Shown: positions 42,900 to 64,000, counted from the first letter of the stretch. The stretch: 64,000 bases of DNA from Candidatus Woesearchaeota archaeon (GCA_964412025.1 CAYPLY010000002.1:33614-97613); one strand, 5' to 3'. Notes: generated by a model from the letters alone, not told the origin. Program-made: numbers and translations.

Positions 42900-44963
42900 T
42901 TAATTGGATAATCTTATTATCTTTTTCCATCCTTTATCGCTTCTTTCTTCATGTATTTTTATTAAACCTTTATTCAATAATTTGTTTTTAAGTATGTTAC
43001 CTTTTCTAGTAGAAAGTCCGATTATTTTGTAAATCTCTACGGTGCTATTGGTATGGGAGGGGTTTTCATTCAGGAAATCCAAAAATCTCTTTTCTTCTGA
43101 AAAGCTTTTAGTGTATAAATTATCCTCATAAATAACTTCAATTATAGGTTTATTTGTTATTCCTTCATTAACCGGAGTATCGGATTCATCTTTCTGATAA
43201 TTTATTTTACCCAGCTTAACTGAATTAAGATAATCCTCTTTTGTTAAGATTCTTCCAAGAGCATAATTTGTTGCTAAGAATATGTCTGCCTCTTTGTAAA
43301 GCTTTTCAGAAATTCCTCCCTCAAGTATCTTTTCTGCCTCCTTAATAGTTCTTCCTTTTTCAACTTGCTTTTTTATGAAATCATAGAGAACGTCCTGAAC
43401 AGGAGTTAGCCCTGTTTTTTCTTCAACTTCATGTACTTCGGAGATTAGAGAATTATCCTCTATATTTTTAGACATTCCTGTTTTTTTAAGATTTATTTCG
43501 ATAGGATTTATATTAGAAGTTGAGTGTGGATTGATTAGAGCTTCTCTAAATTCAGGATCACCCTTTTCAACTTCCAATCCCTGTACGACACAATCCATTT
43601 TTCCTGTAATTTTTTCATCGGAGATATTTGAATTTCTTAAATCAGTATATGGAACCTTAATTAAAAATGGACTTGTATATCTCTCTGAAAGTTTTACTAC
43701 GGCACAACCCACAGGTAACTGGGTGAAAATTTCTCTTCTCTCAGGTATCTGCATTATGGAACTTATATCATAAACATCTTGAGGTAATTGCTGTTGAAAT
43801 GCTATATGACAAGCACTATTTCCTTTTACAGTATCGCTTAATTTTGAGATATGTTGATCTAGACAGATTAGACAAGTTCCATATTCTCTCATCTCTCTGT
43901 AAATCATATCCGTAACAGATTCTGAAACAAAGTAGGTATTACCCTTTAAGAAGATATTATGTGCTTCATCGACAAGAATGGCATGATTAAACCCCTCAGT
44001 TGTCTTTTCAGAGTTAGCTTTCTTTAATTTAAATATATAAGTTAGGATATACTCTGCAAAAAATTTCTTTTCAATATTCCCCAAAGAATTTAACTCAAAG
44101 ATAACTCTTTTATCAAAGAGCTCATCGACTGAAAGACTTTTCTTACCATCATAGTTTATAACTTTACCAAAATCCCCAAAGGTAAGGATAGTTGCAATCC
44201 TAAGAGCGCTTTCATACCAGGTTGCTTCTCTTCCTCTCGCCTCTCTTGCTTTTATTTCAAGCATTTTCTTGATATGCATCCAATTGGGATAGTGTTGTGA
44301 ACCCTTGTATACCTCCCATCCTTCAAAAACCTCATCCAAGGTTTCAAGTAATATCTTGTGTACTCCAAAAGAAACACAAAAGCTCTCTGTGAGCAAATCA
44401 CATAAGGTGTTTATCCATTCTTTAGGTGAAACTCCCTTTGGAGGTATGTTAATGTTTGTCTTAAATAGATTGCTTATAGAATCATTGCCAACTGTAAAAC
44501 ACATAACTGAAGGATCTGTATTAATTAAAGATCTGAAACTTTTTTTCCAGTCAAATACCAAAAAAGGTTTGTCTTTTTCTATAAATCTCTGAAGAATATT
44601 TAATGCAAGAGTTGTTTTACCACTTCCACTCATCCCACTTATACAAACATGTCTTGGCCAGTCTTGTTCTCTCAATGAAAAGGGGAATAATTCTTTATTT
44701 GCATAAACTACCTTTGAAAGTTCATATTCTCCTGAGACTGCACTTTGAGTTGGGGGTTCAAGTAAAACTTTCTTGTCTAGAAACTCTCCTAAATATTTCT
44801 GGTATAGAGCACTTAAAATCTGAACGATTTGATTTCTTTCTTCTGGAGATTCGGACATAGAATATCTGAAGTAAAGCTCGTCTATTTTTCTCCCAAGTAT
44901 TGGCTTTAACTTTGAACTTATTTCTTCTATAGAAAGAGATCTTTGATAGGTCATTTTAATCAT
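42900..44963 (-). CDS. HerA/FtsK-superfamily P-loop ATPase (DUF87/AAA_10-like) with C-terminal winged-helix domain
   Basis: Walker A CISGMSGSGKTT; Walker B AILVDEAHNIF; C-terminal KIIGLSTRKGNILKNKLLNKGLIKI wHTH-like; 687 aa. Confidence 0.6.
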   Translation of the reverse strand: MIKMTYQRSLSIEEISSKLKPILGRKIDELYFRYSMSESPEERNQIVQILSALYQKYLGEFLDKKVLLEPPTQSAVSGEYELSKVVYANKELFPFSLREQDWPRHVCISGMSGSGKTTLALNILQRFIEKDKPFLVFDWKKSFRSLINTDPSVMCFTVGNDSISNLFKTNINIPPKGVSPKEWINTLCDLLTESFCVSFGVHKILLETLDEVFEGWEVYKGSQHYPNWMHIKKMLEIKAREARGREATWYESALRIATILTFGDFGKVINYDGKKSLSVDELFDKRVIFELNSLGNIEKKFFAEYILTYIFKLKKANSEKTTEGFNHAILVDEAHNIFLKGNTYFVSESVTDMIYREMREYGTCLICLDQHISKLSDTVKGNSACHIAFQQQLPQDVYDISSIMQIPERREIFTQLPVGCAVVKLSERYTSPFLIKVPYTDLRNSNISDEKITGKMDCVVQGLEVEKGDPEFREALINPHSTSNINPIEINLKKTGMSKNIEDNSLISEVHEVEEKTGLTPVQDVLYDFIKKQVEKGRTIKEAEKILEGGISEKLYKEADIFLATNYALGRILTKEDYLNSVKLGKINYQKDESDTPVNEGITNKPIIEVIYEDNLYTKSFSEEKRFLDFLNENPSHTNSTVEIYKIIGLSTRKGNILKNKLLNKGLIKIHEERSDKGWKKIIRLSN

Positions 44964-45411
44964 TTAAGATTCCATTTAATTCATTTATTCTTCCTTCTTT
45001 TTCACTAAGCTCTTTCTCATATACTCTAAGTTCTTTCTTTAAAAGAGCTATATCCTTCCAACAGTTAATTTTCTCATTAAGCTGAAGCTCAGAAATCTCT
45101 ACTTTTTTATTTCTAAGAGCATTTTTCTCAATTAAAGCCTCATTTTGACCAAGAGCTCTTATGGTGCTTTCGTTACCGATTATAAGATTATTAATCTCTA
45201 ATTTTATATCTTCTGCATCTTTTATAAACTCCAAACTTAACCTCTTTCTTTCATCAACGAGTTGTTTTATTTCTTGGATGGCTTTCTTAAGAGAAGATAT
45301 TCTCTCCTGTCCCACTACATCCAACATATTTCCATCTGAAAAACCAGTTATTTCGGGTTTTTCGAGCCCAATCAGAGGGGTTTTATTCTTAGGATATACA
45401 CTCGAGACCAT
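44956..45411 (-). CDS. Coiled-coil protein, translationally coupled to the ATPase
   Basis: Heptad-rich K/E/L sequence; 8-nt overlap with the ATPase start. Confidence 0.35.
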   Translation of the reverse strand: MVSSVYPKNKTPLIGLEKPEITGFSDGNMLDVVGQERISSLKKAIQEIKQLVDERKRLSLEFIKDAEDIKLEINNLIIGNESTIRALGQNEALIEKNALRNKKVEISELQLNEKINCWKDIALLKKELRVYEKELSEKEGRINELNGILND

Positions 45412-46932: not shown

Positions 46933-47190
46933 TTGTCTATGGTTAAAAGGGGTAAAAAGGTTAAGTCTGATAGGAGAGTTAGCAAGGATAAAAAAGTTAA
47001 TTGGGTTTTAACCCTTATAATGTCTATAGTCTTTGGATGTTTAGGAGTGGATAGATTTCTTATGGGACATGTTGGACTTGGAATACTTAAGCTGATAACT
47101 CTTGGAGGATGCGGGGTTTGGTGGTTAGTGGATTTAATATTAATCGCAACAAAACACAAATTTAATGGAATTGAATGGGTTCAAGATTAA
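46933..47190 (+). CDS. TM2 domain-containing membrane protein
   Basis: CLGVDRFLMGHVGLGILKLITLGGCGVWWLVDLILI matches the TM2 domain pattern (G-x-DRF-x-G...GG-x-G-x-WW-x-D). Confidence 0.55.
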   Translation: MSMVKRGKKVKSDRRVSKDKKVNWVLTLIMSIVFGCLGVDRFLMGHVGLGILKLITLGGCGVWWLVDLILIATKHKFNGIEWVQD

Positions 47191-47504
47191 ATGAATTTTT
47201 AAGCAAATTAATTACTTTAAGCTATTCTAGATATAGATTTTTTACTTTTTTGGGAGTATTAATTTTATTGAGGATACTTCCATTTTCTTCTATTGAAAAA
47301 ACCCACAACTTTTCAATTTGTTCAATAATTCTAGGAAAATACTGCTATTCGGTGGGTATAACTCGGGGGGTGGCAAGTTTGTTGAGAGGAGAATTTCAAA
47401 GAGCGATAGAATTTAATCCATTGTCTTTTTTAGTAACCCTCGTATTGGTTTTATTTATATCATATGACTTCTTCAAAGGATTTATAAAATATAAAAAACA
47501 ATAG
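47175..47504 (+). CDS. Membrane protein, hypothetical
   Basis: 3 hydrophobic segments. Confidence 0.3.
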   Translation: MGSRLNEFLSKLITLSYSRYRFFTFLGVLILLRILPFSSIEKTHNFSICSIILGKYCYSVGITRGVASLLRGEFQRAIEFNPLSFLVTLVLVLFISYDFFKGFIKYKKQ

Positions 47505-47509
47505 ATAAT

Positions 47510-47800
47510 ATGAAAAAAGAAGAAGAAAAATTAAGAAAAGAAAGAGGAGAAGCACTGATGAGGATTCCTGTAGGGATAGTATCTGGAATAATAATTTATG
47601 TCTGGGCTTATCTCATAGGAGTTTTCTTTATCATAAATTTAGTATACAAAATATTTTCTGGTAAAAGAATAGATGAACTTGCAGCAATGTCTGAAACATG
47701 GAACACTCAAAATTATTATTTTATGAGGTATATGACTTTCGGCTCAAATGAAAGGCCTTTTCCTTTTGAAGAATTGAAAAAGAATATGAATAAAATTTAG
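47510..47800 (+). CDS. Small membrane protein, hypothetical
   Basis: One hydrophobic helix after a charged N-terminus. Confidence 0.3.
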   Translation: MKKEEEKLRKERGEALMRIPVGIVSGIIIYVWAYLIGVFFIINLVYKIFSGKRIDELAAMSETWNTQNYYFMRYMTFGSNERPFPFEELKKNMNKI

Positions 47801-47802
47801 AA

Positions 47803-48222
47803 TTAATTTTTCTTTATACTTAATTTTTCCAGTTTGTCTTGAACATGATTAAATAAAGTAGTTGAAACCAGAGGTTTGTGATTTCCCTCGTGAATTTGTC
47901 CCCCAAATTTGACTTTTCCCACATATGCGAAGTTTCTTAATACCTTTTTTAAGCCGTTAACTGAAAGTCTATGTTTTGAGGCAAGTATTGATAGATTAAT
48001 ATCTGGCTGAAGAAACTCTTCAAAAATCTCCTCTACTTCTCTTGAATTTTGTGCGGGGATTAATATTTTGTCGCGTAAATCCCATTCATACCCAAATGGA
48101 GCTCTAGACATATGCTTCCCTTCTGAAAACTTTTTTATCATACCTTTTTTCTGGGATTCTCCTCTATCTTCTCTGGAATTGTGTTCTATTTCAAACTCAT
48201 GTCCGCATTTTGGGCATTTCAT
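47803..48222 (-). CDS. Zn-ribbon plus serine-recombinase-type 'recombinase' DNA-binding domain protein (no catalytic resolvase domain)
   Basis: CPKCGHEF zinc ribbon; SRAPFGYEW...LRNFAYVGKVKFGG resembles the PFGY-containing recombinase domain of large serine recombinases; 4-nt overlap with the integrase gene. Confidence 0.45.
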   Translation of the reverse strand: MKCPKCGHEFEIEHNSREDRGESQKKGMIKKFSEGKHMSRAPFGYEWDLRDKILIPAQNSREVEEIFEEFLQPDINLSILASKHRLSVNGLKKVLRNFAYVGKVKFGGQIHEGNHKPLVSTTLFNHVQDKLEKLSIKKN

Positions 48223-49052
48223 TTCATAACCTCATCTATGGGGGATTTAATTTTTTTAAGTTCTTCTCTTGAAATATGAGTATATATCTGGGTAGTTGAA
48301 AGGTCACTATGTCCCAACAACTCTTGTATTTTTCTTATATCTGTCCCATTCTCTAAAAGATGGGTTGCAAAACTATGTCTTAAGGTATGACAATGAACAT
48401 CTTTATTTATTCCCGCTCTTTTTCCTGCTTTAGAAATAATCTTTTGAAGATTTCTTTCAGATAATCTTCCTTTTGGTCCCGTAAACAAATATTCTTTTTT
48501 TTCTTCTTTTTGTTTTTCAACTTGAGTCTTTAAATCTTCTAAAAGAAATTCTGGAAGGTTAAACACCCTATCCTTTTTACCTTTTCCCTGACGAACACTT
48601 CCAATTTTCTCCTCGAAATTTAAATCTTTAACTTTTAAATTAACTAACTCTGAAACTCTAAAACCACAAGCATACATAAAAGATACCATGGTCTTAGATT
48701 TTTTTGTATCTATGGAATTGATAAGTGTCTTAACTTCTTCTTTTGTTAGAACAGAAGGTATCCTTTTTTCTTTTTTGGGACGTTTTATACTAAGGGTTAT
48801 ATCTTTATGAAGAATATTTGTGAAAGAGTACCTTATTGCAGAAAGAAAAACTATGATTGAAGAAGAGGAAGCTTCTCCAAGCTTCTCAACAAGATAGGAC
48901 TTTAAGTCGTCTTCATTTATTTCTTGAGGTTCTTTTTTGATATAATCAAGAAATTTTCTGTTACAATCAAGATAATTTCTAAGAGTATATTCAGAGTTCT
49001 TAGATATTTTTAATTCTATTTCAAGTTTCTTTAAAAAATCTTCTGAATTCAT
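48219..49052 (-). CDS. xerA: Tyrosine site-specific recombinase (XerA/XerC/D-like integrase)
   Basis: C-terminal HTLRHSFATHLLENGTDIRKIQELLGHSDLSTTQIYTH (R...HxxR...Y catalytic box); 277 aa. Confidence 0.8.
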   Translation of the reverse strand: MNSEDFLKKLEIELKISKNSEYTLRNYLDCNRKFLDYIKKEPQEINEDDLKSYLVEKLGEASSSSIIVFLSAIRYSFTNILHKDITLSIKRPKKEKRIPSVLTKEEVKTLINSIDTKKSKTMVSFMYACGFRVSELVNLKVKDLNFEEKIGSVRQGKGKKDRVFNLPEFLLEDLKTQVEKQKEEKKEYLFTGPKGRLSERNLQKIISKAGKRAGINKDVHCHTLRHSFATHLLENGTDIRKIQELLGHSDLSTTQIYTHISREELKKIKSPIDEVMK

Positions 49053-49294
49053 TTGCCTTCCTCTTTTAAGTTAGATTATAAATAAAATTATACGAACTCG
49101 TTTAAATATCTTTAGATAAACCTATTTGGGTTTATTGTTTTTTGAAGAATGTTTCATCAACTCTTTTTGATTTATCAACATAATTGCTACTGCACCCGCT
49201 ATAAACCAGGGGTTCCAGACAAATGCTAAAATCAAGAATAAAAGTGCTAAAATGGAAAGTGAAAATAATCTTAAGTTAAACATTTTAGAAAGAA

Positions 49295-50257
49295 TTAACT
49301 TCCTGGAGCAACCGTTGCCCCAAAGATTATATTACCTTGACAGGTTCCAGCAACCCCTAAAGGAACGTAAATTCTCCAGTAAGAAGCGTTAATTGCTTCA
49401 TTAAATGTATCATTCTGTCTATAATTCAAATCATATTTTTTAACCACGGGGTAAGAAGTTAAATTGGTATAGTTTGCAACAAATTGGGCAAGATCTAAAA
49501 CTCCGGGATTACTATTGGTTAAATTGTATTTCTCATTCTCTATACTGATATTTTTTATAAAACCAAGCGTACAATTCATTGCATTACCATCTTCCAATGC
49601 AAACCCGTAACCGCTCAAAGAAAGATTAATTTTAACATTTCCATAATTGGTTACATTTGAAACGTTCTCTAGAGAAACTTCTGTTGCATTTACTTCTCCA
49701 TAATAAATAAAATCGGGTAATCCTAAAGCCAACAAACTGGAGATGTTAATAATATCACTTCCATATCCCACCTTATTTTTTGAATCTGATACTTTAAGAG
49801 TACAATTCCAATCTCCTGCATTTGTATAATACCAGATATCCATGCTGCAGTTAATCCATGCTGTATATGTATCGTCTTCAATTATATCACAGGAATAGTT
49901 TGTATAATGATAGTTGTTATCATTTCCATCAATATAAGAAGATGAGACAGAGTCAAAAAATGTAGCAGTTGCATTGTCTATATCTTGCCACCCGTTGAAG
50001 TCCGTAGCTAATCCTGAGCAGTAGATTGTTTTTGTGGAGTTTGGGATAAGTGAAAGAGTGGAATCATTGTTTTGAATCGTAACATTCGTTAGCTCTGGGA
50101 AAACATTCCCCACGGTTAAATTTGTAATTACAGTAACATTGTGTTCTCCCACCCCTGCAAAAACCTCTCCAGGGAGAAAAGAGAATAATATGATGAGTAG
50201 AGCTATCTCTAATAAAATCAAAGATACTACTGTTTTTGTTTTATTTTTTAATATCAT
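49295..50257 (-). CDS. Secreted, sequon-rich (N-x-S/T) cell-surface protein
   Basis: Signal peptide; about 30 N-x-S/T sequons in 320 aa; several Cys. Confidence 0.45.
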   Translation of the reverse strand: MILKNKTKTVVSLILLEIALLIILFSFLPGEVFAGVGEHNVTVITNLTVGNVFPELTNVTIQNNDSTLSLIPNSTKTIYCSGLATDFNGWQDIDNATATFFDSVSSSYIDGNDNNYHYTNYSCDIIEDDTYTAWINCSMDIWYYTNAGDWNCTLKVSDSKNKVGYGSDIINISSLLALGLPDFIYYGEVNATEVSLENVSNVTNYGNVKINLSLSGYGFALEDGNAMNCTLGFIKNISIENEKYNLTNSNPGVLDLAQFVANYTNLTSYPVVKKYDLNYRQNDTFNEAINASYWRIYVPLGVAGTCQGNIIFGATVAPGS

Positions 50258-50258
50258 T

Positions 50259-51008
50259 TTAACCTAACTCAACATAAAGATAATATGCGGTTGATCCCGA
50301 GAATCCTTGTGATCCGTTTTCTGGAACAAGCATCTGGAAATCATATGTATTTCCATCATAACCTACTAAACCGGGTTCTAGGATTGTTGCATAAATAATG
50401 CTAGTTCCATCATACAATGCCATTTCTTCAAAATCATCATCTTGTGTACCATCACTTACAAAAGTGTTTAAAGTGGGGCATTCATTTGCACTAAATGGAG
50501 TTCCCGCGACATAAAATAAATCATGAGTTCCAGTTTGGAAAGTGGTATTTATAGTATCCTGCCTTAAAGAAATATTATGAAACAGCGCCACATCTTCTGT
50601 TGCAAGAGTAGTGGCAACATCTGCACAATCAATTAGATTCCATTCTATTGTCGAGGAATCTCTTGTTGCATAAACTCTTCCGGAAGTTACAGCAAAACTC
50701 CAATCATAAATAGTTGAACCTGCAGAATCATCCAGTGTGAATGCAGCAGTAATCCATCCTACGAAAGCTTTCCAATGAGTATTTTGAACTGTTGCAGACA
50801 AGTTTAATGCTGCAATGTATCCCCCAGAAATATTGAAAAAACCTGCTGCAGTGGTATTCATAGTCTCATTCCAAACAGAGATAACCTCGCTTGGACCTAC
50901 AGGGTCTGCCGCGGATATAAAAATATTTGATGAAACACAAATTGAAAATATTACACTTGCAAATAAGACAAATGCAAATAATGCTCTGTTTTCTCTTTTT
51001 TTAAACAT
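50259..51008 (-). CDS. Secreted protein, divergent member of the 'SWQGYFG...YYFWVELE' paralogue family
   Basis: Signal peptide; shares THDLFY and the C-terminal ...YYLYVELG with the family. Confidence 0.45.
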   Translation of the reverse strand: MFKKRENRALFAFVLFASVIFSICVSSNIFISAADPVGPSEVISVWNETMNTTAAGFFNISGGYIAALNLSATVQNTHWKAFVGWITAAFTLDDSAGSTIYDWSFAVTSGRVYATRDSSTIEWNLIDCADVATTLATEDVALFHNISLRQDTINTTFQTGTHDLFYVAGTPFSANECPTLNTFVSDGTQDDDFEEMALYDGTSIIYATILEPGLVGYDGNTYDFQMLVPENGSQGFSGSTAYYLYVELG

Positions 51009-51079
51009 ATTTTCGGTTCTTTATTCTCCTTCTCTCTTGAACTTCTTTTTCATCAATTTAAAATAAAAAAATAAATTAT

Positions 51080-51838
51080 TTACTCTAACTCTACCCAGAA
51101 GTAATAAGTAGTAGTCGAGGTATCTATTAAATGACCATTTTCTAATACAAGCATTTCAAAGTCATGTGCTCTCCCATCAAAACCTAGTGGACTTTCTTCA
51201 TCCAAGATAGATGTAAAAACTACGCTAAGAGTTGTAGGGTCATATAATAAAACTTCCTGGAACATGCTATCTGTTGCATTTTGATTAGATGCAAAGATGT
51301 GTGTACTTGCACACTCTCCTGGAGTGAAATCAATATTGTTTGTATAAAACAAGTCATGAGTGAGACCAAATCCATTCTCATGAGTTCCACCTACAGAGAA
51401 AGTTTCATTAACTCCATCCACATCGTCTGAAGCTATTCCAAACATTGCTTCTAAATCTTCAAAATAAGTTCCAAGTTCAGTTTCTAAACACTTGATTGTA
51501 CCCCATGTAATTGAATCATTGGTAGAGGCATAGATTTCACCCTCTGGAGAAGCCAAAGACCAGTTGTACATAACATTGTCAGCGCTGTCTGCCAATTGGA
51601 TTGTACCTGAAACATTTCCAAAATAACCTTGCCAGGACTGAGTTATAGAAATACCTGTTACCTCAAGTTCAGTGATATTTCCCGCAATAGCAAAATCACT
51701 ATCTGCAGCGGTCGCATTCATCCTTGAACTGGTTAAATTTGTTACGTCTGCACCAAATGGTTCTACAGCCAAAACTGTAAGAGACAAAAATACAATTAAC
51801 AAAATAGAAAATAGAAACAACTTGCCAAATTTACCCAT
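51080..51838 (-). CDS. Secreted protein of the 'SWQGYFG...YYFWVELE' paralogue family
   Basis: Signal peptide; TQSWQGYFGNVSGTIQLAD...YNWSLASPEGEIYAS...HDFEMLVLENGH...TTTYYFWVELE. Confidence 0.5.
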   Translation of the reverse strand: MGKFGKLFLFSILLIVFLSLTVLAVEPFGADVTNLTSSRMNATAADSDFAIAGNITELEVTGISITQSWQGYFGNVSGTIQLADSADNVMYNWSLASPEGEIYASTNDSITWGTIKCLETELGTYFEDLEAMFGIASDDVDGVNETFSVGGTHENGFGLTHDLFYTNNIDFTPGECASTHIFASNQNATDSMFQEVLLYDPTTLSVVFTSILDEESPLGFDGRAHDFEMLVLENGHLIDTSTTTYYFWVELE

Positions 51839-51984: not shown

Positions 51985-54900
51985 TCAAAATATTTCTACA
52001 TAAAATATTGCGGCTTTTGTGTCCGTTGTTCTATACTCTCTTAATTTTGCAGGCACCCTTATCTCATAATCGTACGTACCATATGTTCCCTCTTTATATT
52101 TGTTAATTGGTGAGATAAAAATTAAATCTTCCTTGTCTGCTAAATCAAACTCTCCATTTGTTCCATTTGTGTCATCGGAGTAATCCCACAATATTCCAGT
52201 AATGAAATTAGAATTGTTTGTAGAATTAATTATTGGAACTTCTTGGATTGTATCGTCAAATGAATAAATATCTGAAGTATATTTTGGTGTTCCTGAATTT
52301 GTATATGTAGAGTAGACAGAGTCAGTATATAGTGTTGAATTTAGTAGAGTGTCTACTTCCTCGAAATCTGAAGCACTATCTGCGTTTAATTTTGTTTTTC
52401 CCAGAGATTGTAAGGTTCCCCAAGAGATATAAGAATCATAATCTGTGATGTAAACATTTCCTTGATTGAAATTTTCTGTACTCCAATTCGTTAATTTAAG
52501 TTCCAAAGAATCTGCAAGAACTAAATTACTAGATGATAAAACATCTCCGTAAAAAAAGTGCCAAGAACCTATACTTATACTTCTACTTGCCTTGTTATTT
52601 GATTCATTTAATTCAATAAAACTTCCGTTTGTTGATAAAGGAGGATCAACAACTACAAAGATTTCTGATGGTCCCATCTGTGAAGACCAATCTTTGGTGA
52701 TATTTATCTGACTAAACATAGAAAGATTTGTATATATATCTGAACCAATTTTAACCCCTCCCAAATCTGGATCTCCCTCGTAAAAGCTGATAGTTACATT
52801 TCCAATATCTACTCCTGCAAGATTATGTATTGTTGCAGTTATCTTTATAACTTGATTTTCTTTTGGATTTGAATTATTAAAAAATATTTCTGATGAATTA
52901 ACAAAAAAGTCTGGATAAGTAAGGTTAAATTTTCTCAATTCGCTTATATTTGTATTTTTCATTTGGTCCCAACAAGTAACATTCCAGGAGTGTTCTCCCT
53001 GTCCCAATACGGAAGTAAGAACATATTCTCTTTTTGAAATATTGCTTGTCACCCAAACATTAGGCCTTCTTACTATTCCATCTATGGTTAGATTACATTG
53101 AAGAATATTATCCAAAACATCTATTGCTGTCCAATTAAAATAAACTCTGTCTTCATTGAAATCTATGCCAGAATTATTTTCTGGAGAGTTCAAAATTATT
53201 AAAGGAGGAGAGAAATCCATGGAGAAATATTTGTGAGTTGCATTTGCATATGAAGGGATAGGATTATTTGTATCAAAACATCCCACCGTCCAATTATGTA
53301 ATCCTTCTGTTATACCCGAAATAGTAAAATTAGGATTTATAATTAATTGAGCAGAAGATTTTGATTCATTTGGAACATCGTCTATGTATAAAGTACAATT
53401 GTTGATTATCTGTGCATCTTCTGCTAAGTAGTGGAAAGTGACTGAACTACCAAAACCATAAAAATCATCATCGGGGGTATAAAGAGTGATCTGAGGAGGA
53501 GCATATACTGTAAAATTTCTTGTTTCACTTGTGTTGGAATTCTCAGCATTGTCTATACATTCGATTGTCCAATTGTAACTTCCATCATCCAACAAATACG
53601 GGTATATTTCTGGAGTTGAATTTTCTGCAATAACTTGATCATAAAAAATATCATTGATGAAAATACTACAAGAGATGTTTTCATTTAAATTGTCTTCCAC
53701 TGTAAAATTAAATAAAACTTCATTCCAATCTAAGGTTTCGTTTGGTTCAGGAAAGTTAAGAACAATATTTGGTGCTTCTGTGTCTATGTATAACGTCCTA
53801 TTTTCATCGCTACCCATTACTCCTAAAGAATCTACACAATAAACATTCCAGGTATAATTCCCTTGAGGAAGAACCTCATTGAAATAATTAGAATTATCGT
53901 TAATTATAGGTGTGGAATTAACAGCTACAAAAGAATCATCTATGTATAATGAACAATTAACAATGTCCTCTTCATATTTGTAAGCATAGTACTCAAATTC
54001 TATTTCTGTATAATTAATCCATAAATCAGGTTCGGGAGATATCAGAATAACTTCGGGTGGAGCAAAAGTAGTAAATGATCTTGTTTCGCTTGTATTTAAA
54101 TTTCCAGATAAATCCGAACAAGAAACATTCCAAAGATGTTCTCCTGAGATTAAATCCCTTGTAATCAAATTTATGCTATTATTTTCTAAAATTAAAGGAG
54201 TTATATTATTATCTACAGTAAAATTACATGTTAAATTTTGTGCAAGGTTATCTCTAGCTGTAAAGTTAAAAGTTATTTGTGAAGAATAAATTACCTCTTC
54301 ATCTTCGGGGTAAGTTAATTCTATTTGTGGAGAGGAATTGTCTCTATAAAAGAATCGTGTTTCTGAATTGTTTTGTAACCCATATGTATCAAAACATCTT
54401 ACATCCCAGCTATAAAAACCATCAGATAAATCGGTTATTGAAAAATTTGTTAATTGATTGTTTAATGGAGAGTGAGCTACATCTTTGAAAGAATTATTTA
54501 TGTAAAGAGAACAATTCGAGAGATTAGTGTTATCTGAAGGAGTGTATTGTAATAAAATATTTTCTTTAAACCAAGTTAAATTTTCTGTAATTAAAGAAAT
54601 CTTTGGAGATTCTCTAATGGTTATCTCTCTATTTTCACTGATATTATAATGTCCTGCAGAATCTACGCAACTTACATTCCAAACTTTTAAACCATCTGTT
54701 AATCCAATTATAGGTCTGCTTGTATTTGCATTTCTTGTTACAACTATATTATTATCATATTTCTCACCTACGCTTAAATTACAAATTAGCTCTGAATCAA
54801 GATTATCTGTAGCATTAAAATAAAAACTTAAATAAGAGGATTGTGAAATTGTTGAAGTCTCTGGATTTAAGAGATAAACAATAGGGTTTTGTGTATCTAC

Positions 54901-57900
54901 ATAAAAAGATCTTGTAGAAGCAAGTGTACTATATCCTCCATTATCGGTTATGTTAACTGTCCAATTATAAAATCCATCTTGAAGCGAGAGTGTAAAATTG
55001 TTGTATGCTTTATTAATAATTAGGGATTGGTTCGATTGGTTGTATGTTCCATTTAAATATAAATCTGCAACATTTAAGTCATTGTTGTCAGAGGCATTAT
55101 AAATAAGAGTAACTAATGAAGTATTAAACCACCAATAATTAGAGGTTATCAAAAATATTTCTGGAGGAACATCATCTATATTAAAATGGAATGTTTCACT
55201 TGTATGGCTCCTTAAAGAATTATCAAAACATGTAACATTCCAATAATGTGTTCCAACGTTTAAGTAACCAGAATTATAACTTGCATTTGTTCCATTTTCA
55301 ACATAAACTCCGGAGTGAATTGTTTTTCCATCTAATATAACATTACAACTAAGATTTAAATCCATATTATCTGTTACATTAAAAACTAAATTTAAATTAT
55401 TTACAAGGTTGTTTGCTCCATCTTCAGGATAAATTAATTTAACAAATGGATTTTCTAGATCAACATAAAATATCCTTGTTTCATTTGAAGCTGCTTCTAA
55501 ATTAGTCCTATCTGTGGCATTAACACTCCAATTATAAATTCCTTGCCCAAGAAAGATTGTAAAATTATTAACTGCATTATTTGTTATTGCAGATTGGTTT
55601 GTTTGATTTTTTTGCCCATTCAGGATTAATGTTGAATTTGCAAGATTGTCATTTAAATCAGAAACATTGTAATAAAGAACTACTTGAGATGAATTAAACC
55701 AAGTTAAATTGGTTGGAGAAGTTAAATTTACGCTTGGAGGAGTTGCCCCCGCAGAAGTTACCGTTACAGGGTTTGTTGTTGTCCCATTATAATTATCATA
55801 TGTTCCAACTGAAATACATCGGATATTGTTGTCTGAAGAATAAGCATTCCCTCTTATAACAAATGTAGTGTTTTGAGAAACATTTGTTACATTCCCTAAA
55901 TAATGGGGATTAGTTTCTCCTGAGTTTAAAATAAGATTTCCTGAAGAACCTATATTGACCCATCCTGAAGTTGAAGTGTTTCTTTGAATGTACACATTAA
56001 CATTTCTGCAAGTTCCAAAAGAACAATTAACTTCGCATGTTGCCTCGAAAGTGTCTTCTTGGGGAACATATGGATCAACTAAGGGGGAAACTAAGTCTGT
56101 ATGTAAAAATCCTTCTGTAGTTAAATTAACAACAACATAGGAGTTTGTTCCTGAATCCCAAGTATGAGTTAATACTTTATCTTTATTATGAGTATTATAT
56201 GCATTAATAACTAATTTTAGTCTATCACTTTGTCCCAAATAGATATCTCTATCTATACAAGTAGTGTTTGTTCCTGATGCTGCATTTTCAAAAATACCGC
56301 TATTTGCATCATTCCCTAGTTGACATATTAAAGTATCTGTTCCCCCCCTAGAAACATAAAGTTTCCAAGTTATTGCAATCTTTCCCGCAGGGGTTGAAGA
56401 GCTAAATGTTCCAGAAAAACTAATAGGGGTTCCAGAAGGGATAACAGCCCCATTATATCCCATATATTGGGAAGTTGCACTAACTATATTTGCTAATCCT
56501 CCTGCACCAATATCAAATATAACAGAATTCGTTGTTGCATCCTGGGTGCTTTTTAATTTTATTTCTGCTAAAGTATTTCTGGAAGGATTAAATGTTGAAC
56601 TTTCATATAATGTTCCTGTAAATAATTCGGGGGTTATAGAGACATTTATTGTCCTATTTTGGCTGAACCCTGTTCTACCTCCTTCATCAACACATGAAAC
56701 ATACCAAGTGTATATTCCATTATCTAAGAATTCATTGAAGGTCATATTTGAATTTTTTGTTATTGAATACTCTGTTTTCTTTAATTGATTGTTTATATAT
56801 AAAGAACAATTCTCAACTGAAGATAAATCAGAAACATTATACACAAAATATAAATTATCATCGCTTGTTATTGTAGAAGAGTTTGGAGGGTAAATTAAAT
56901 TAATTATTGGAGCAGCTAAATCAAATGAGAATGTATAATTATTTGCTCCAAAAAAACATCCATTAGAAGAGTCACAGCATTGTATATTCCATATATAATC
57001 TCCAGAAGAGGAATAAGTTTTGTTTATATAATTAAAAGTGTTATTAAAAATTGTGGATTGATTTGTTAAATTTCTATGCCAACTTCCAGTTGAATTGTCC
57101 CACAAACTGCAATTCAAAAAAGTAGCAGAAGAAATTGGAGTAAAATTAAAGACAACATTTTGGGAATAAAGAATATCTGTGGTTATGGGGGTTCTTAAAA
57201 GAACTTCAAATGCTCCTGTTTCATAAGTACTATAACTTATCCGCATATATCCTGCTGCTCCTGCTCCTCCACTAACTGATCCTCCTGAACCTTTTCTTCC
57301 TCCTCCACCTCCTCCACCATAAGTATTACCTGGATTTCCTGAGCCAGTTGTTGTTCTTCCTGCACCCCCATCTCCTCCTAATTCGGGGGTTCCTGTTCCT
57401 GCTGTACCCACACTTGCATTTCCTCCAATTCCTGTTGAACCTGCTCCTCCACCTCCTGCACCAGAGAATGTAGAATTAGCAGTTCCCCCTTCTCCACCCA
57501 TATAAATCAAATCTCCTATTGAATTTGTAACACTTCCTCCTTCTCCTCCTGTTCCTGCACTTAACCCTCCACTTCCTCCGGCAGCATATAACTCTGAACC
57601 ATCTCCAAAGTAAGTAGGATTTCCCGAGGCTCCATTTCCAGAAGTTCCTGCAACGCTTGTTCCTACAACAAGGGTATAATTTTGATAAGGAGTAACTGAG
57701 AAGGTTTTTTTAGCATAAGCTCCTCCTCCTCCACCTCCTGCAATTCCTCCACCTCCTGCGGGCCTTCCTCCTCCTGCTCCTCCTCCTCCCCAGGCTTCAA
57801 CAGTAATTTCATAAACTCCTGCTGGAACCATCCAGGTTGTACTTGAAGTAAAGTTCTCTAAATAGTAAGTATAAGGATCAAGAATATGGTCAAATTCAAC

Positions 57901-59298
57901 ACCTCCTCCAACAACTCTTAAATCGAAAGTATCTTGAATATCTGAGATTAAATTTGTTAAATAAATTTTATTGTACTCATCTGAAACTAAGGGAGTGAAT
58001 TCTGCAATTTTTATATCTGAATTAAATTCATAGACTTCAACTACTGGATTTCCACTTATAATTCTCGGAAAAATAGTTATATCTCTTTTATTGTCTAAAG
58101 GAACTTCAAAAGTTACTCTCACATAATCTCCATCTGAGATTTCTTCAGACCAGATATTATCTAATTCCTTAACTTCATTGTAAATATCTGAGATAAATTC
58201 CTTACTTGAAGAGAGATGGTCTGCCTTAGTTATAATAATTATCTCAAATGTTTGTTCGGATAAATGGGGTACAATCCATTCAACATAATCAATTAGTCCG
58301 TTATTGTTTGTGTCTTTTGCCTCAAAATTAAGATAAATTCCTTCCTCTTTCCAATAAATCTTTATGAAATCCTCCTGCCCAGTAGAAACTCTCTCAGGTA
58401 TTGAAGTGTAAGATAAAACATTCTCATAATGTACGTCCTCTTGAGAATAAACAATAACCTCTTTTTTATTTTCAGAGATATTCTTCTCCTCTATCTTTGG
58501 GGGCTCCGTAAAATATTCTAAGCTAAGATCCTCGGAGGGAGTTTCTCCAAGGTTTATAAATTTCTTTCCCTCAATCTCAACAATGTCATAATTAACAAAA
58601 ACCTCCCCATTTTCTTTTTTCAACTCTAATCCTATAGTGTTTGGAATCTCAATTAAACTAAGAGAATCTGCTTCCTTTACAAGCTTATTCCAAATTACTG
58701 GCTTGCCAATTTCTGCTTTTCCTTGGATTAAGCCTTGTTGAGAAGGAGAGTTTACTGAAAATTGATAATATTTAATTGCGTTTCCTCTTTCAAAACGTAC
58801 AGAATAAACTCCTTCCTCTAATAAATCAAAAAAGAATATATCATTGGAAGAAACCCTTGAGGATCTCTTTCCTGAGGGAGATAGAATTAATAATTCATAA
58901 TTTCCAAGTCCGTTAAAATTGAATTTCAGAGTATCCCAAAGAAGATAAGAGTTATCTGTTTCAAAATCAAATAAGATATAATCTTCTCGATTTGAGTTAA
59001 CCTGAAACTTTAATCTCTCAGAATAATCTTCTGATTTTATCTCGACTATATATTCTCCTACTTCAGTGAACTTTAGAGAAAGTTTATCCTCACAAACCTC
59101 CTGAACAATTATTTTTGAAGGGGCCTTAATTTTTAAAGAACAGGGGTTATATTTTGTTAAATCAATCTTTACTTCTTCTCCAAGAGAATAAGATTCTGCA
59201 GTAGAGGCTGAGCTGAATAGGGAAGAGAATATAAGGGCAAGCAATAAGACAAAAATTAAAATAATTACACCTATTTTTATAGCTCCTTTTTTGTTCAT
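51985..59298 (-). CDS. Giant (2,437 aa) secreted cell-surface protein: N-terminal beta domains, Gly-rich domain, at least 12 tandem ~95-aa Ig-like sequon-rich repeats
   Basis: Signal peptide; TWMVPAGVYEITVEAWGGGGAGGG...Gly-rich block (aa ~480-690); repeats with conserved P.I.L..P...C.L....N.S.F...DG.Y.W.V.C.D; ends ...AIFYVEIF. Confidence 0.6.
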   Translation of the reverse strand: MNKKGAIKIGVIILIFVLLLALIFSSLFSSASTAESYSLGEEVKIDLTKYNPCSLKIKAPSKIIVQEVCEDKLSLKFTEVGEYIVEIKSEDYSERLKFQVNSNREDYILFDFETDNSYLLWDTLKFNFNGLGNYELLILSPSGKRSSRVSSNDIFFFDLLEEGVYSVRFERGNAIKYYQFSVNSPSQQGLIQGKAEIGKPVIWNKLVKEADSLSLIEIPNTIGLELKKENGEVFVNYDIVEIEGKKFINLGETPSEDLSLEYFTEPPKIEEKNISENKKEVIVYSQEDVHYENVLSYTSIPERVSTGQEDFIKIYWKEEGIYLNFEAKDTNNNGLIDYVEWIVPHLSEQTFEIIIITKADHLSSSKEFISDIYNEVKELDNIWSEEISDGDYVRVTFEVPLDNKRDITIFPRIISGNPVVEVYEFNSDIKIAEFTPLVSDEYNKIYLTNLISDIQDTFDLRVVGGGVEFDHILDPYTYYLENFTSSTTWMVPAGVYEITVEAWGGGGAGGGRPAGGGGIAGGGGGGAYAKKTFSVTPYQNYTLVVGTSVAGTSGNGASGNPTYFGDGSELYAAGGSGGLSAGTGGEGGSVTNSIGDLIYMGGEGGTANSTFSGAGGGGAGSTGIGGNASVGTAGTGTPELGGDGGAGRTTTGSGNPGNTYGGGGGGGRKGSGGSVSGGAGAAGYMRISYSTYETGAFEVLLRTPITTDILYSQNVVFNFTPISSATFLNCSLWDNSTGSWHRNLTNQSTIFNNTFNYINKTYSSSGDYIWNIQCCDSSNGCFFGANNYTFSFDLAAPIINLIYPPNSSTITSDDNLYFVYNVSDLSSVENCSLYINNQLKKTEYSITKNSNMTFNEFLDNGIYTWYVSCVDEGGRTGFSQNRTINVSITPELFTGTLYESSTFNPSRNTLAEIKLKSTQDATTNSVIFDIGAGGLANIVSATSQYMGYNGAVIPSGTPISFSGTFSSSTPAGKIAITWKLYVSRGGTDTLICQLGNDANSGIFENAASGTNTTCIDRDIYLGQSDRLKLVINAYNTHNKDKVLTHTWDSGTNSYVVVNLTTEGFLHTDLVSPLVDPYVPQEDTFEATCEVNCSFGTCRNVNVYIQRNTSTSGWVNIGSSGNLILNSGETNPHYLGNVTNVSQNTTFVIRGNAYSSDNNIRCISVGTYDNYNGTTTNPVTVTSAGATPPSVNLTSPTNLTWFNSSQVVLYYNVSDLNDNLANSTLILNGQKNQTNQSAITNNAVNNFTIFLGQGIYNWSVNATDRTNLEAASNETRIFYVDLENPFVKLIYPEDGANNLVNNLNLVFNVTDNMDLNLSCNVILDGKTIHSGVYVENGTNASYNSGYLNVGTHYWNVTCFDNSLRSHTSETFHFNIDDVPPEIFLITSNYWWFNTSLVTLIYNASDNNDLNVADLYLNGTYNQSNQSLIINKAYNNFTLSLQDGFYNWTVNITDNGGYSTLASTRSFYVDTQNPIVYLLNPETSTISQSSYLSFYFNATDNLDSELICNLSVGEKYDNNIVVTRNANTSRPIIGLTDGLKVWNVSCVDSAGHYNISENREITIRESPKISLITENLTWFKENILLQYTPSDNTNLSNCSLYINNSFKDVAHSPLNNQLTNFSITDLSDGFYSWDVRCFDTYGLQNNSETRFFYRDNSSPQIELTYPEDEEVIYSSQITFNFTARDNLAQNLTCNFTVDNNITPLILENNSINLITRDLISGEHLWNVSCSDLSGNLNTSETRSFTTFAPPEVILISPEPDLWINYTEIEFEYYAYKYEEDIVNCSLYIDDSFVAVNSTPIINDNSNYFNEVLPQGNYTWNVYCVDSLGVMGSDENRTLYIDTEAPNIVLNFPEPNETLDWNEVLFNFTVEDNLNENISCSIFINDIFYDQVIAENSTPEIYPYLLDDGSYNWTIECIDNAENSNTSETRNFTVYAPPQITLYTPDDDFYGFGSSVTFHYLAEDAQIINNCTLYIDDVPNESKSSAQLIINPNFTISGITEGLHNWTVGCFDTNNPIPSYANATHKYFSMDFSPPLIILNSPENNSGIDFNEDRVYFNWTAIDVLDNILQCNLTIDGIVRRPNVWVTSNISKREYVLTSVLGQGEHSWNVTCWDQMKNTNISELRKFNLTYPDFFVNSSEIFFNNSNPKENQVIKITATIHNLAGVDIGNVTISFYEGDPDLGGVKIGSDIYTNLSMFSQINITKDWSSQMGPSEIFVVVDPPLSTNGSFIELNESNNKASRSISIGSWHFFYGDVLSSSNLVLADSLELKLTNWSTENFNQGNVYITDYDSYISWGTLQSLGKTKLNADSASDFEEVDTLLNSTLYTDSVYSTYTNSGTPKYTSDIYSFDDTIQEVPIINSTNNSNFITGILWDYSDDTNGTNGEFDLADKEDLIFISPINKYKEGTYGTYDYEIRVPAKLREYRTTDTKAAIFYVEIF

Positions 59299-62093: not shown

Positions 62094-62226
62094 GTTGATT
62101 CCAATATTTTTGTTCTCCTAACAAATACAAAATAGGAATATTTCATATAAAAATCTACTTAAATGATTATTTAAATGTTTTTTCAGAAAAATAGATAGAA
62201 GGGCATAAAAAAATAAAAATTTGCCC

Positions 62227-62928
62227 TTATTCTAATTCTACCCAAAAGTAATAGGTAGTTGTTGCAATATCTGATCCATGGCCGTCTTCCAATACTATCA
62301 TCTCGAAATCGTGAGGGTTGTTATCAAATCCGTTTGCATCTTCTAACAACAATGATGCAAATATTAGACTTTCGCCATCTGTTAATAAAACCTCGTTGAA
62401 AGTTCCTACTCCTGCACTGTTAAATAACAACGTATTATCACACATTCCAGTTGTGAATTGTTTGCTATTGGAAAAAAACTCGGGATGATTATTAAGACCA
62501 AATGTTTCGTTTATACCATCGGCATCGTCCCATTCAATTCCGAACATGTTCTCAAAGTATGTCATGTTATTTGTTTCATCATAACATTGAATCCCGTCCC
62601 AAACAACACCTGAAGCGTTTGATGCATAGATTTCACCCTCTGGAGAAGCAAGAGACCAGTTATACAAGACATTATCCGAAATATCTGCTAATTGTATTGA
62701 ACCTGAAACATTACCAAAATAACCCTGCCAAGATTGAGTTACGGATGTTGCAGTGATTTCAAGTTCTGTAACATTTCCTGCATAAGCAGAAGTATTCCCT
62801 GCATCACTAGTGTTCATTCTTGTACTAGTAAAATTAGTTACATCGGCACCAGTAGGAAGAGCGGAAACTAACATGGGCAACAACAATATCAAAAAGAATA
62901 CCCAAATAAAATTAATGATTTTCTTCAT
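62227..62928 (-). CDS. Secreted protein of the 'SWQGYFG...YYFWVELE' paralogue family
   Basis: Near-identical motifs to the 51080 gene (TQSWQGYFGNVSGSIQLAD, YNWSLASPEGEIYAS, TTTYYFWVELE). Confidence 0.5.
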   Translation of the reverse strand: MKKIINFIWVFFLILLLPMLVSALPTGADVTNFTSTRMNTSDAGNTSAYAGNVTELEITATSVTQSWQGYFGNVSGSIQLADISDNVLYNWSLASPEGEIYASNASGVVWDGIQCYDETNNMTYFENMFGIEWDDADGINETFGLNNHPEFFSNSKQFTTGMCDNTLLFNSAGVGTFNEVLLTDGESLIFASLLLEDANGFDNNPHDFEMIVLEDGHGSDIATTTYYFWVELE

Positions 62929-63547
62929 CTTTTTTACCTCCTTTCAGCTCTATACTTTTTTTTAAAAAAATAGGACATCTATGTACTATGAAAAGAGAGG
63001 AGAGATTCAGATTAGTTATTTCTTCAAGGGAATGGAACTCAAAATTTACTTTATCTTCATGCTTTTTTGAAAGAGCTTCTATGGCTTGCTGAGTCTTTTT
63101 ATCTTCTAGAAATATAATTATAGAATGGTTTGACTTTTTTGGGTCAACAAAAATTGCATTGATATCCTTAAAAACATCTTTAACTCTGTATAACAAATTT
63201 TCTAATATATTCTGGAGATGTTTATTTTCTAAAAACCATGTTCTCAACATAGACTTTTGATAATCGTCTAGGTTCAGAGATTTCTTCTCCCCAAAACCAT
63301 TTGACAACATTACAGAATATGAAATGTCTTTTGAGATTGAAAATAGATTCCTTGGTTTTCCTTTTTCAAATGCCCCTGTTTTTTCTTTAGAAACAATCTG
63401 CGCAGCTTCAAGCAGTTTTAACTGTTGACTGATAAAAGAAACTGTTGTTTTCGTTTTTTCAGCAATTTCTATTGGAGAAGAAGGCCTTTCTGAAATTATT
63501 TTTAGAATTTCCCATCTAGGTGAGGCTAGAAACGAATCGAGTTCCAT
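62912..63547 (-). CDS. ArsR/winged-helix family transcriptional regulator with extended C-terminal domain
   Basis: LASPRWEILKIISERPSSPIEIAEKTKTTVSFISQQLKLLEAAQIV HTH; overlaps the start of the downstream paralogue gene by 17 nt. Confidence 0.5.
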   Translation of the reverse strand: MELDSFLASPRWEILKIISERPSSPIEIAEKTKTTVSFISQQLKLLEAAQIVSKEKTGAFEKGKPRNLFSISKDISYSVMLSNGFGEKKSLNLDDYQKSMLRTWFLENKHLQNILENLLYRVKDVFKDINAIFVDPKKSNHSIIIFLEDKKTQQAIEALSKKHEDKVNFEFHSLEEITNLNLSSLFIVHRCPIFLKKSIELKGGKKDEENH

Positions 63548-63722
63548 TTGTTTATAAATATCTAAGTGTCTATTTAAATGTTTTGTTTAATTAATTAAGT
63601 TTGTTCTTTAACTTATAAAGATTTTAAATTTAAAAACTTTTTTAACTAATTAAAGTATTTAGTTAAGCAGTATAAGAAAAAAAGGAGGAAAATCGGAAAA
63701 TTCAAAACAAAAAATAAGCTAT

Positions 63723-64000
63723 TTACTCTAACTCTACCCAGAAGTAATAAGTGGTGGTAGAAGTATCTGTTAAATGTCCATTTTCTAATACAAGCATCTC
63801 GAAATCGTGAGGGTTGTTATCAAAACCAAAAACATCTTCATTTAGAAGAGAGGCAAAAACAACGCTATATGTTGTAGGTTCATATAACAAAACTTCTTCA
63901 AATTTATTGTCTTCTCCCTGACCTGCATCGCTAAATACTTGAGTATTCCTACACTCTCCCTCTCCAAACTCCAAATTGTTTGTATAAAAAGTGTTATGTC
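63723..64000 (-). CDS. Secreted paralogue-family protein, 5'-partial (N-terminus lies beyond the window end)
   Basis: Frame open to base 64000; ...HNTFYTNNLEFGEGEC...HDFEMLVLENGH...TTTYYFWVELE aligns with the C-terminal half of the 51080 and 62227 genes. Confidence 0.5.
   Translation of the reverse strand, partial: HNTFYTNNLEFGEGECRNTQVFSDAGQGEDNKFEEVLLYEPTTYSVVFASLLNEDVFGFDNNPHDFEMLVLENGHLTDTSTTTYYFWVELE

Follow-up and report, generated by a model that had tools for sequence, protein, structure and literature searches.

The closest described relatives of the locus studied here are the archaeal XerA/dif systems of Pyrococcus abyssi, Thermococcus kodakarensis, Thermoplasma acidophilum and Sulfolobus, for which no partner protein has been described (PMC2958812, PMC8371274). 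A dif site consists of two inverted arms of ~11 bp around a 6-bp spacer (PMC2958812); that of T. kodakarensis is TTTTGATATAATGTACCTTATATGACAA, and a dif-like element is reported directly upstream of a xerA operon in haloarchaea (PMC11840125). Neither an archaeal FtsK equivalent nor an accessory factor of XerA is known (PMC2958812, PMC8371274). Bacterial Xer recombination is under accessory control (ArgR/PepA at cer, ArcA/PepA at psi, FtsK-gamma on XerD), and in these systems a DNA-binding factor sits on one side of the core. In large serine recombinases (LSRs), the recombinase domain (RD) recognises the inner part of the att half-sites.

We analysed a 64,000-nt stretch (hereafter the window) from a Candidatus Woesearchaeota archaeon (GCA_964412025.1, CAYPLY010000002.1:33614-97613), with positions counted from its first letter. 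Its minus strand carries xerA (48219..49052), assigned to an archaeal Xer-type tyrosine recombinase of 277 aa by NF040815, Pfam, 4A8E and synteny. The protein scores 247.4 bits against the NCBIfam model NF040815 (recomb_XerA_Arch, cut-off 220), and Pfam finds a Phage_integrase domain (7.6e-50) and a SAM-like N-domain. Among solved structures the closest is P. abyssi XerA (4A8E, E 1e-45), against which the R-K-HxxR-H-Y catalytic residues align (GFRVSEL, GKGKKDR, HTLRHSFATH, LLGHS and TQIYTH); the preliminary description of the locus had already proposed a XerA-like integrase with its catalytic box, and this is borne out. The XerC, XerD, integron-integrase and invertase models all stayed under their cut-offs on this protein. 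The context of the gene is that of a chromosomal, vertically inherited one, its neighbourhood being collinear in relatives and without flanking repeats. Judged by sequence, the ORF is a bona fide archaeal XerA and a syntenic housekeeping gene, and the locus is the predicted chromosomal Xer dimer-resolution gene of a Pacearchaeota/Woesearchaeota-type DPANN archaeon. It shares its enzyme family with the described archaeal systems, and 11-6-11-type dif-like sites likewise occur in the window's relatives.

Whereas the described XerA systems have no partner protein, xerA here sits in a predicted operon with a putative RD DNA-binding protein of 139 aa (47803..48222, minus strand). Both ORFs lie on the minus strand and overlap by 4 nt as first reported, through an ATGA stop/start (48219..48222, minus strand). 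A GAGGT element within the xerA 3' end (48229..48233, minus strand), 6 nt 5' of the small gene's ATG, is Shine-Dalgarno-like and probably serves as such. Upstream of xerA, ATATTTAAA (49101..49109, minus strand) resembles a TATA box and is a putative promoter element of the operon, its position and sequence being kept across relatives. Between it and the xerA start, 44 nt before the ATG, lies GTTCGTATAA (49088..49097, minus strand), a conserved half-site resembling a XerA arm, which XerA would be expected to bind. The arrangement recurs in relatives: wherever xerA or a HAD-xerA operon has a leader of its own, GTTCGYAYAA follows a TATA-like box, and the half-site is kept upstream of one or the other in at least 25 species. 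A dif half-site in the promoter is a further difference from the described XerA systems. The two genes would be transcribed together from their own promoter, with the small gene downstream and translationally coupled.

The small protein was identified as a headless RD protein, type A of a DPANN family, from PF07508, PHROG_95, 4KIS and Foldseek matches. The PF07508 search suggested in the preliminary description returned a score above gathering (Pfam 'Recombinase', 27.5 bits, GA 21.1). PHROG_95 (large serine integrase) matches residues 17-137 (E 8e-16), and by profile the A118/LI integrase C-terminal fragment 4KIS matches residues 27-136 (E 8e-4). CcrA and XisF match over the region that follows their catalytic domain (for CcrA, 18-131 to 129-248), and LSRs of ~500 aa match at their residues ~135-260 (E 1e-12 to 1e-10) in a profile search of 1.84 billion representatives. 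An AlphaFold2 model, of only moderate confidence (pLDDT 74), gives a helix (20-34), a hairpin, a three-helix HTH, a hairpin and a helix; large serine integrases account for all of its top nine Foldseek matches in the PDB (E 1e-5 to 2e-4, TMq ~0.6), and the matches after these have E > 0.07. Residues 38-137 (47812..48111, minus strand) make up the RD by Pfam, alignment, model, profile and Foldseek, with a beta-hairpin, the HTH, a second hairpin and a C-terminal helix. Residues 20-34 (48121..48165, minus strand; RGESQKKGMIKKFSEG) correspond to the C-terminal half of the serine-recombinase helix alphaE according to the model and the CcrA and LSR matches, and align with the FAEFERN..ERTK..M region of neighbouring Resolvase-RD paralogues.

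No Resolvase catalytic domain (PF00239) was found in the protein by Pfam, as the preliminary description had proposed, and only 19 residues precede the alphaE remnant. Pfam likewise found no C-terminal zinc-ribbon/coiled-coil domain (PF13408), and the chain stops at the last RD helix. On these comparisons the protein is the C-terminal half of alphaE plus an RD, with the catalytic domain absent. It is not an LSR, because two of the three defining domains are absent, and it would work most like an isolated LSR DNA-binding module. Its fold is that of the RD of the A118/LI (4KIS/6DNW) and SPbeta (9DXF/9DXH/9Y66) integrases, to which its sequence is also homologous from the last part of alphaE through the RD. 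In contrast to these enzymes, it has neither the Resolvase nor the zinc-ribbon/coiled-coil domain, stands alone at 139 aa with a vestigial N-terminal HNH knuckle, and is chromosomal and vertically conserved rather than borne by phages or other mobile elements. Automated annotation calls relatives of the small protein 'recombinase family protein' or 'DNA invertase Pin-like'; these labels are misleading because headless proteins cannot catalyse recombination.

The N-terminus had been described as a Zn-ribbon of the LSR kind, a reading that fails on several points. Residues 1-12 (48187..48222, minus strand; MKCPKCGHEFEI) hold a single CxxC knuckle with the only Cys pair of the protein (C3 and C6), located N-terminal of the RD, whereas the LSR ribbon is C-terminal to it, and the proposed Zn_ribbon_recom search gave no PF13408 match. 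In a 26-sequence alignment, the only invariant positions of this segment are C3, P4 and C6, and H8 and H14 vary. That the lone CxxC forms an intermolecular Zn site of the Rad50-hook kind was also considered and left as speculation (Pfam match insignificant, E 0.31). The knuckle is instead homologous to the first knuckle of an HNH head in relatives. An HNH+RD protein, its two Pfam domains both scoring above threshold, is encoded in three related loci, and a free-standing HNH ORF lies just upstream in two; L024_u2 and L066 pass PF01844. The head of the HNH-RD proteins reads CxxC...HH...N...CxxCH plus a linker. In type B small proteins both knuckles and the linker are kept, and a 17-residue deletion takes out the HH..N core (N-terminus against HNH-RD, BLASTP E 1e-12). 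Type A, the form in the window, retains the first CxxC alone, and in type C a heptad coiled coil stands in place of the head. From invariance and this alignment series, the knuckle is the vestige of an HNH nuclease head, and the series shows that the small protein descends from catalytic RD proteins, namely from an HNH-RD nuclease that lost its HH..N core. The window protein itself has the first CxxC only of the HNH core CxxC...HH...N...CxxC(H) (PF01844), and it is not an HNH nuclease because that core is deleted; no Resolvase or HNH relatives occur elsewhere in the 64-kb window. That a ribbon, a knuckle or a coiled coil can be swapped in before the alphaE remnant suggests a role in dimerisation. 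Degenerate or domesticated HNH homing endonucleases show the same reduction series with the DNA-binding module kept, but here the reduced protein holds a single, fixed chromosomal position throughout an entire lineage. The literature searched does not mention a fusion of HNH with an RD of the LSR type.

The family is restricted to DPANN archaea. At least 998 homologue clusters were found; the best 120 of these are all 124-144 aa, 69-96% identical, and belong to MAGs of Pacearchaeota, Woesearchaeota, Nanoarchaeota and 'Diapherotrites'. Among species-representative genomes, 281 have a relative of the small protein, and none was found on viral contigs (IMG/VR). Full-length orthologues of similar size are 60-96% identical, and 49 columns of the 26-sequence alignment are invariant, among them those of the HTH recognition helix LSVNGLKK[IV]L. 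We compiled locus statistics from the best 80 related species loci, taking 5 kb on either side of the small gene. In nearly all loci the small gene and S9-L13-L18e are convergent, and these ribosomal genes are kept beside it more faithfully than xerA. In 36/80 loci xerA lies on the same strand directly upstream, across all three N-terminal types (A, B and C), with a junction of -4 nt in 17 of the 36 and +1 nt in 15; in 12 more loci it lies within 5 kb. The unusual pairing of a tyrosine recombinase with a headless RD protein is thus real and conserved well beyond the window genome. The -4 overlap is not specific to xerA, since the small gene overlaps a HAD hydrolase or YbaK-like gene by 4 nt where xerA is absent, and in 10 loci with full flanks neither recombinase lies within 5 kb. 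In the window's relatives, a giant surface protein, three secreted proteins, xerA, the small gene, DUF4389, S9-L13-L18e and a HerA-like ATPase are collinear at 75-96% identity. The ribosomal genes, taken at first to be displaced, are in their usual place: the order xerA-small gene followed by convergent S9-L13-L18e is common to nearly all 80 loci. Together, these data show that the small gene is under strong purifying selection at a fixed chromosomal position. The preliminary description had allowed for a plainer case, in which the recombinase is the conserved chromosomal XerA in syntenic context and the small ORF bears no similarity to recombinase DNA-binding domains; the first half holds and the second does not.

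The gene upstream of the small gene is not always a tyrosine recombinase. In 16/80 loci this slot holds a ~250-aa protein made up of a Resolvase domain, alphaE and an RD, ending where the RD ends. Its Resolvase domain is complete (E 1e-40 to 1e-45, motif YxRVSTxxQ), the small protein and its RD half are close paralogues, and in some loci a HAD gene lies between the two genes. Across the 80 loci, 48 have xerA only, 16 Resolvase only, none both and 16 neither (Fisher p 2e-8). A neighbour-joining (NJ) tree of the small protein is too short to number the switches, and repeating the count on S9+L13+L18e gave the same result. On the NJ tree of these ribosomal proteins the slot changes state ~12 times (bootstrap 9-13; random labels 13.5), with at least 9 independent switches, and the mutual exclusion of xerA and Resolvase-RD upstream of the small gene is therefore not a single-clade effect. 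Two sister loci, L027 and L025, share syntenic flanks around a slot that holds xerA in one and Resolvase-RD in the other, and their sequences diverge right after a common ...CTAAGCTAACCTAAGTGCAAA. These comparisons show that the recombinase slot alternates between tyrosine and serine enzymes.

We then considered the DNA sites of these loci. The 9-10-mer of the xerA leader forms both arms of full dif-like sites in relatives: TTCGYAYAA-N6-TTRTRCGAA lies 0.07-2 kb from xerA in at least 12 species, and the 6-bp spacers are TATACA, TGTATA or CCTATA. Sites with 0-1 mismatch lie upstream of xerA at this distance in 11 species, with more at 2-3 mismatches. In the available sequence, the 64-kb window has no full dif-like site and only the promoter half-site, and the same holds for its nearest clade. 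Symmetric 11-6-11 palindromes in the window are AT-rich chance matches only, and a consensus scan gave a single 3-mismatch match, inside the L13 gene, which was rejected. A second element of relatives is a 22-nt unit (aaCTAAGCTAACCTAAGTGCAc) with TAA in all three frames. It is found in ~25 loci of both kinds (xerA and Resolvase), in 2-4 copies that share a strand, lie 300-600 nt apart and immediately precede the dif/recombinase slot, with small unrelated ORFs between the copies. For 11 of 15 full dif-like sites a CTAAGCTAACCTAAGTGCAC unit of 22 nt lies 36-202 nt upstream, and for none does it lie downstream. At Resolvase-RD promoters, the TATA box leads straight into the palindrome CTTAGGG-CA-CCCTAAG, after which comes CCCTAAGTTCAC; this last subsite matches the core of the 22-nt unit at 10/12 positions, which makes the unit a candidate RD-binding site. 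Neither the CCTAAGTGCA motif nor the 22-nt unit has a copy in the available sequence of the window and its closest clade. An integron reading of the cassette-like arrays was rejected on inspection, the 22-nt units not being attC-like hairpins; the archaeal integron literature does not mention Xer or serine-recombinase arrays.

Considering all of this, we tentatively favour, at somewhat less than an even chance, the view of the small protein as a domesticated dimer that binds DNA sequence-specifically and is accessory to a chromosomal site-specific recombination locus; more generally, a DNA-targeting or accessory role is a plausible best guess at its function. It would be a domesticated, catalytically inert relative of the lineage-specific RD proteins (Resolvase-RD and HNH-RD) and would bind specific DNA as a dimer, its N-terminal module, swappable with a coiled coil or a 4-Cys ribbon, providing dimerisation in place of the catalytic-domain interface. 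Its likely target is a CCTAAGT-type motif resembling the 22-nt unit that relatives have 36-202 nt beside dif-like sites, where it may act as an accessory, architectural or regulatory factor for XerA recombination; in other species it would serve the Resolvase-RD enzyme likewise. Its analogues would be the proteins that bind the accessory sites of cer/psi, or the accessory subunits of res. With cer and psi the likeness is functional only, the 22-nt motif being one-sided to dif-like sites as the bacterial factors are to their core, and the small protein has no homology to ArgR, PepA, ArcA or FtsK. With Tn3/gamma-delta res, the palindrome and half-sites of Resolvase-RD overlap its own promoter, like tnpR-autoregulating res sites, and a headless RD dimer would have its counterpart in the subunits that sit, catalytically silent, at the accessory sites; the differences are that the DNA-binding domain is an RD rather than a small-resolvase HTH, and that the proteins are chromosomal in DPANN archaea.

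Several observations argue for this accessory role, namely the linkage to xerA, the exclusivity of the slot, the dif-like sites with their one-sided motif and the modularity of the N-terminus, as well as the selection on the family and its distribution, a literature without a XerA partner and archaea without FtsK. Others weigh against it. Linkage to xerA is not obligate, given the 10 full-flank loci that lack a recombinase, and part of the association is inherited synteny because convergent S9-L13-L18e is kept more faithfully than xerA. The 4-nt overlap also occurs with the HAD hydrolase and YbaK-like genes, P. abyssi XerA recombines dif without partners in vitro, and the AlphaFold2 confidence is moderate only. 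In the sequence available, the window and its closest clade have neither a CCTAAGTGCA motif nor a full dif-like site, so that for this genome the proposed target is a prediction from relatives.

Some of these points would fit an ordinary transcription factor or nucleoid protein with an RD fold, whose adjacency to xerA is inherited gene order unrelated to recombination. Under such a role, it would be natural that the most constant neighbour is the convergent ribosomal operon rather than xerA, that unrelated HAD and YbaK-like genes take over the 4-nt overlap where xerA is absent, and that ten loci have no recombinase nearby; in addition, RDs elsewhere are fused to HTH/wHTH regulator-type domains without a Resolvase domain (P0156 and P0168). 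However, the slot holds one of two unrelated recombinases in 64/74 informative loci and never both, which is hard to obtain by drift alone, and the candidate binding motif clusters beside dif-like sites. We regard a role outside recombination as the main rival, somewhat less likely than the accessory role.

A further alternative starts from the descent of the protein. As a dead paralogue of selfish Resolvase-RD or HNH-RD elements, it could act as a decoy or immunity factor that occupies their recognition motif and so keeps the chromosome, or just the dif/xerA region, safe from being cleaved or receiving cassettes. Its origin in an HNH-RD nuclease that lost the HH..N core would suit this, as would the co-residence of active-looking HNH-RD and Resolvase-RD paralogues in some loci (L024, L045 and L066) and the contrast between a constant small gene and a highly dynamic recombinase slot with its adjacent cassette-like array (at least 9 switches). 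Yet the family is kept at high identity in clades, such as that of the window, without visible Resolvase-RD, HNH-RD or motif array, and mobility of the paralogues lacks evidence, none being on viral contigs. A decoy seems improbable to us.

The preliminary description had read the pair as a recombination module, in which an integrase, paired with a factor for directionality or targeting, would invert or integrate the ribosomal or surface-protein blocks on either side. A tyrosine recombinase with a small DNA-binding protein does recall Int/Xis-type modules, and surface-protein genes with paralogues lie nearby. But no direct or inverted repeats bracket the pair or the adjacent blocks at 34-49 kb and 49-64 kb, where the preliminary description had suggested looking; the repeat search of the window gave only low-complexity 70-85% matches and paralogous secreted-protein genes. 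Across species, relatives are collinear from the giant surface protein to the HerA-like ATPase, the recombinase is a XerA equivalog under the integron-integrase and invertase cut-offs, and viral relatives are absent. Conserved synteny, no flanking repeats and no viral relatives together mean that local inversion or integration is not supported, and the module reading is very improbable; the pair holds a fixed place in the chromosome and is neither a mobile nor an invertible element. Recombination directionality factors have no common sequence signature, and membership was judged by context only; an RDF or Xis-like identity was rejected given the absence of att-like repeats, the conserved chromosomal synteny and the lack of viral relatives. 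An integron was dismissed as well (TIGR02249, 213 bits against a cut-off of 265; no repeat array in the window). Neither protein matches any defence-system protein among the PADLOC models, and an anti-phage defence role was discarded; for a viral or mobile origin, there was neither a relative on IMG/VR contigs nor a PADLOC match. Finally, that the small ORF is a decaying fragment of an LSR, as its missing catalytic and zinc-ribbon domains might imply, is scarcely credible given hundreds of same-size full-length orthologues at 60-96% identity, 49 invariant columns, and xerA abutting the gene with no upstream Resolvase remnant.

The accessory role we favour can be taken further, although in this form we consider it a long shot. 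In this DPANN lineage, chromosome dimer resolution would be two-component, with XerA acting at dif under a headless RD protein on the adjacent CTAAGCTAACCTAAGTGCAC motif; the dif-xerA module would have been repeatedly and interchangeably replaced in situ by a res-like site and a 250-aa Resolvase-RD enzyme, the same headless RD protein serving both. If true, the first part would provide a directionality control that FtsK-less archaea are not known to have, and through the second a serine recombinase would, for the first time, be seen to have taken charge of resolving chromosome dimers. The literature searched yielded nothing relevant on headless RD proteins, archaeal PF07508, a XerA partner or an alternation of xerA with Resolvase.

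The XerA described here is a further member of a known family, and what is unusual is its partner protein, whose function is putative. The question that this partner addresses is how archaeal XerA is kept to resolving, and not creating, dimers (PMC2958812, PMC8371274). A conserved DNA-binding protein predicted to be translationally coupled to xerA is a concrete candidate for a XerA accessory factor, and the defined dif-like sites of relatives, with their one-sided adjacent motif, are likewise concrete candidates that can be tested in vitro. The family also documents a chromosomal slot that alternates between tyrosine and serine recombinases, and its evolution has taken an unusual course: within one lineage, a single LSR recombinase domain stands behind the head of a serine recombinase or of an HNH nuclease, behind a degenerate zinc ribbon or a coiled coil, or with next to nothing in front of it.

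In the loci of related species, here the best 80 (L0nn, ±5 kb around the small gene; positions follow the colon), the place upstream of the small gene can be taken by xerA or by a serine recombinase of about 250 aa that consists of Resolvase, alphaE and the recombinase domain (RD), without a zinc-ribbon domain. The Resolvase-RD gene holds the xerA slot of sister species in L021, L024, L025, L028, L032, L036, L042, L045, L063, L066, L067, L069, L073, L082, L083 and L084, and the two recombinases never occur together. Its promoters carry the palindrome CTTAGGG-CA-CCCTAAG together with CCCTAAGTTCAC half-sites, a layout that resembles res. L028 (DAIQOR010000001.1) is titled 'bacterium isolate CTOTU11692' yet contains the archaeal S9-L13-L18e/small-gene locus, so its taxonomic label is probably wrong.

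The RD also appears in other combinations. Relatives' loci encode fusions of an HNH endonuclease with the RD (L024:3492-4121; L066, from 2647; L045, from 2889) as well as split versions, with free-standing HNH ORFs at L054:4573-4920 and L072:4284-4586; this architecture was undescribed in the literature searched. Two distantly related proteins, P0156 and P0168, combine HTH_23, two tandem Recombinase domains and winged-helix domains, without a Resolvase domain, and are a further case of the RD serving as a plain DNA-binding module.

In the window, S9 is followed by a TM2-domain, a DUF2752 and a DUF4389 protein (46933-47800, + strand), all three of them small membrane proteins, and this run stops 2 nt away from the small-gene stop codon; the DUF4389 gene is kept in many relatives, while the presence of the other two varies. 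About 3 kb from xerA lies a 687-aa HerA/FtsK-superfamily P-loop ATPase (42900-44963, - strand; DUF87, E 4e-9), overlapped by an ORF of 151 aa (44956-45411, - strand); both are syntenic in the closest ~20 relatives. The ATPase may be of interest here, since archaea lack FtsK. The secreted/surface-protein locus (ORFs at 49295-51838, 51985-59298 and 62227-63547) has paralogous secreted proteins, rich in N-glycosylation motifs, on either side of a 2437-aa giant surface protein with a Gly/Pro-rich repeat tract (57250-57800); the paralogous stretches are 51055-51755 versus 62202-62851 and 63698-63827. None of these secreted and giant surface proteins had a Pfam match.

A 22-nt unit, aaCTAAGCTAACCTAAGTGCAc, with TAA in all three frames, recurs in about 25 loci as 2-4 copies on one strand, spaced 300-600 nt apart (e.g., L015:2194/2697/3188, L027:1407/1798/2256 and L073:1844/2240/2656), and is absent from the window. 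The units bound small unrelated ORFs, forming a cassette-like variable array that adjoins dif and the recombinase slot.

For xerA itself, the product in L009 (2039-4138) is 699 aa long because an intein-like insert, with Cys...HN boundaries and a LAGLIDADG-type middle, splits the catalytic motif between HTLRH and SFATH. At least 12 species carry a dif-like site for DPANN XerA, TTCGYAYAA-N6-TTRTRCGAA, 0.07-2 kb upstream of xerA, with TATACA, TGTATA or CCTATA as the spacer (L015:3327, L016:2142, L023:2336, L030:784, L040:3402, L043:1675, L054:3679 and L072:3375, among others); the window has a half-site only (49088-49097). In most species a single dif-like arm lies downstream of the TATA box and ahead of the xerA operon start, a placement that suggests autoregulation.
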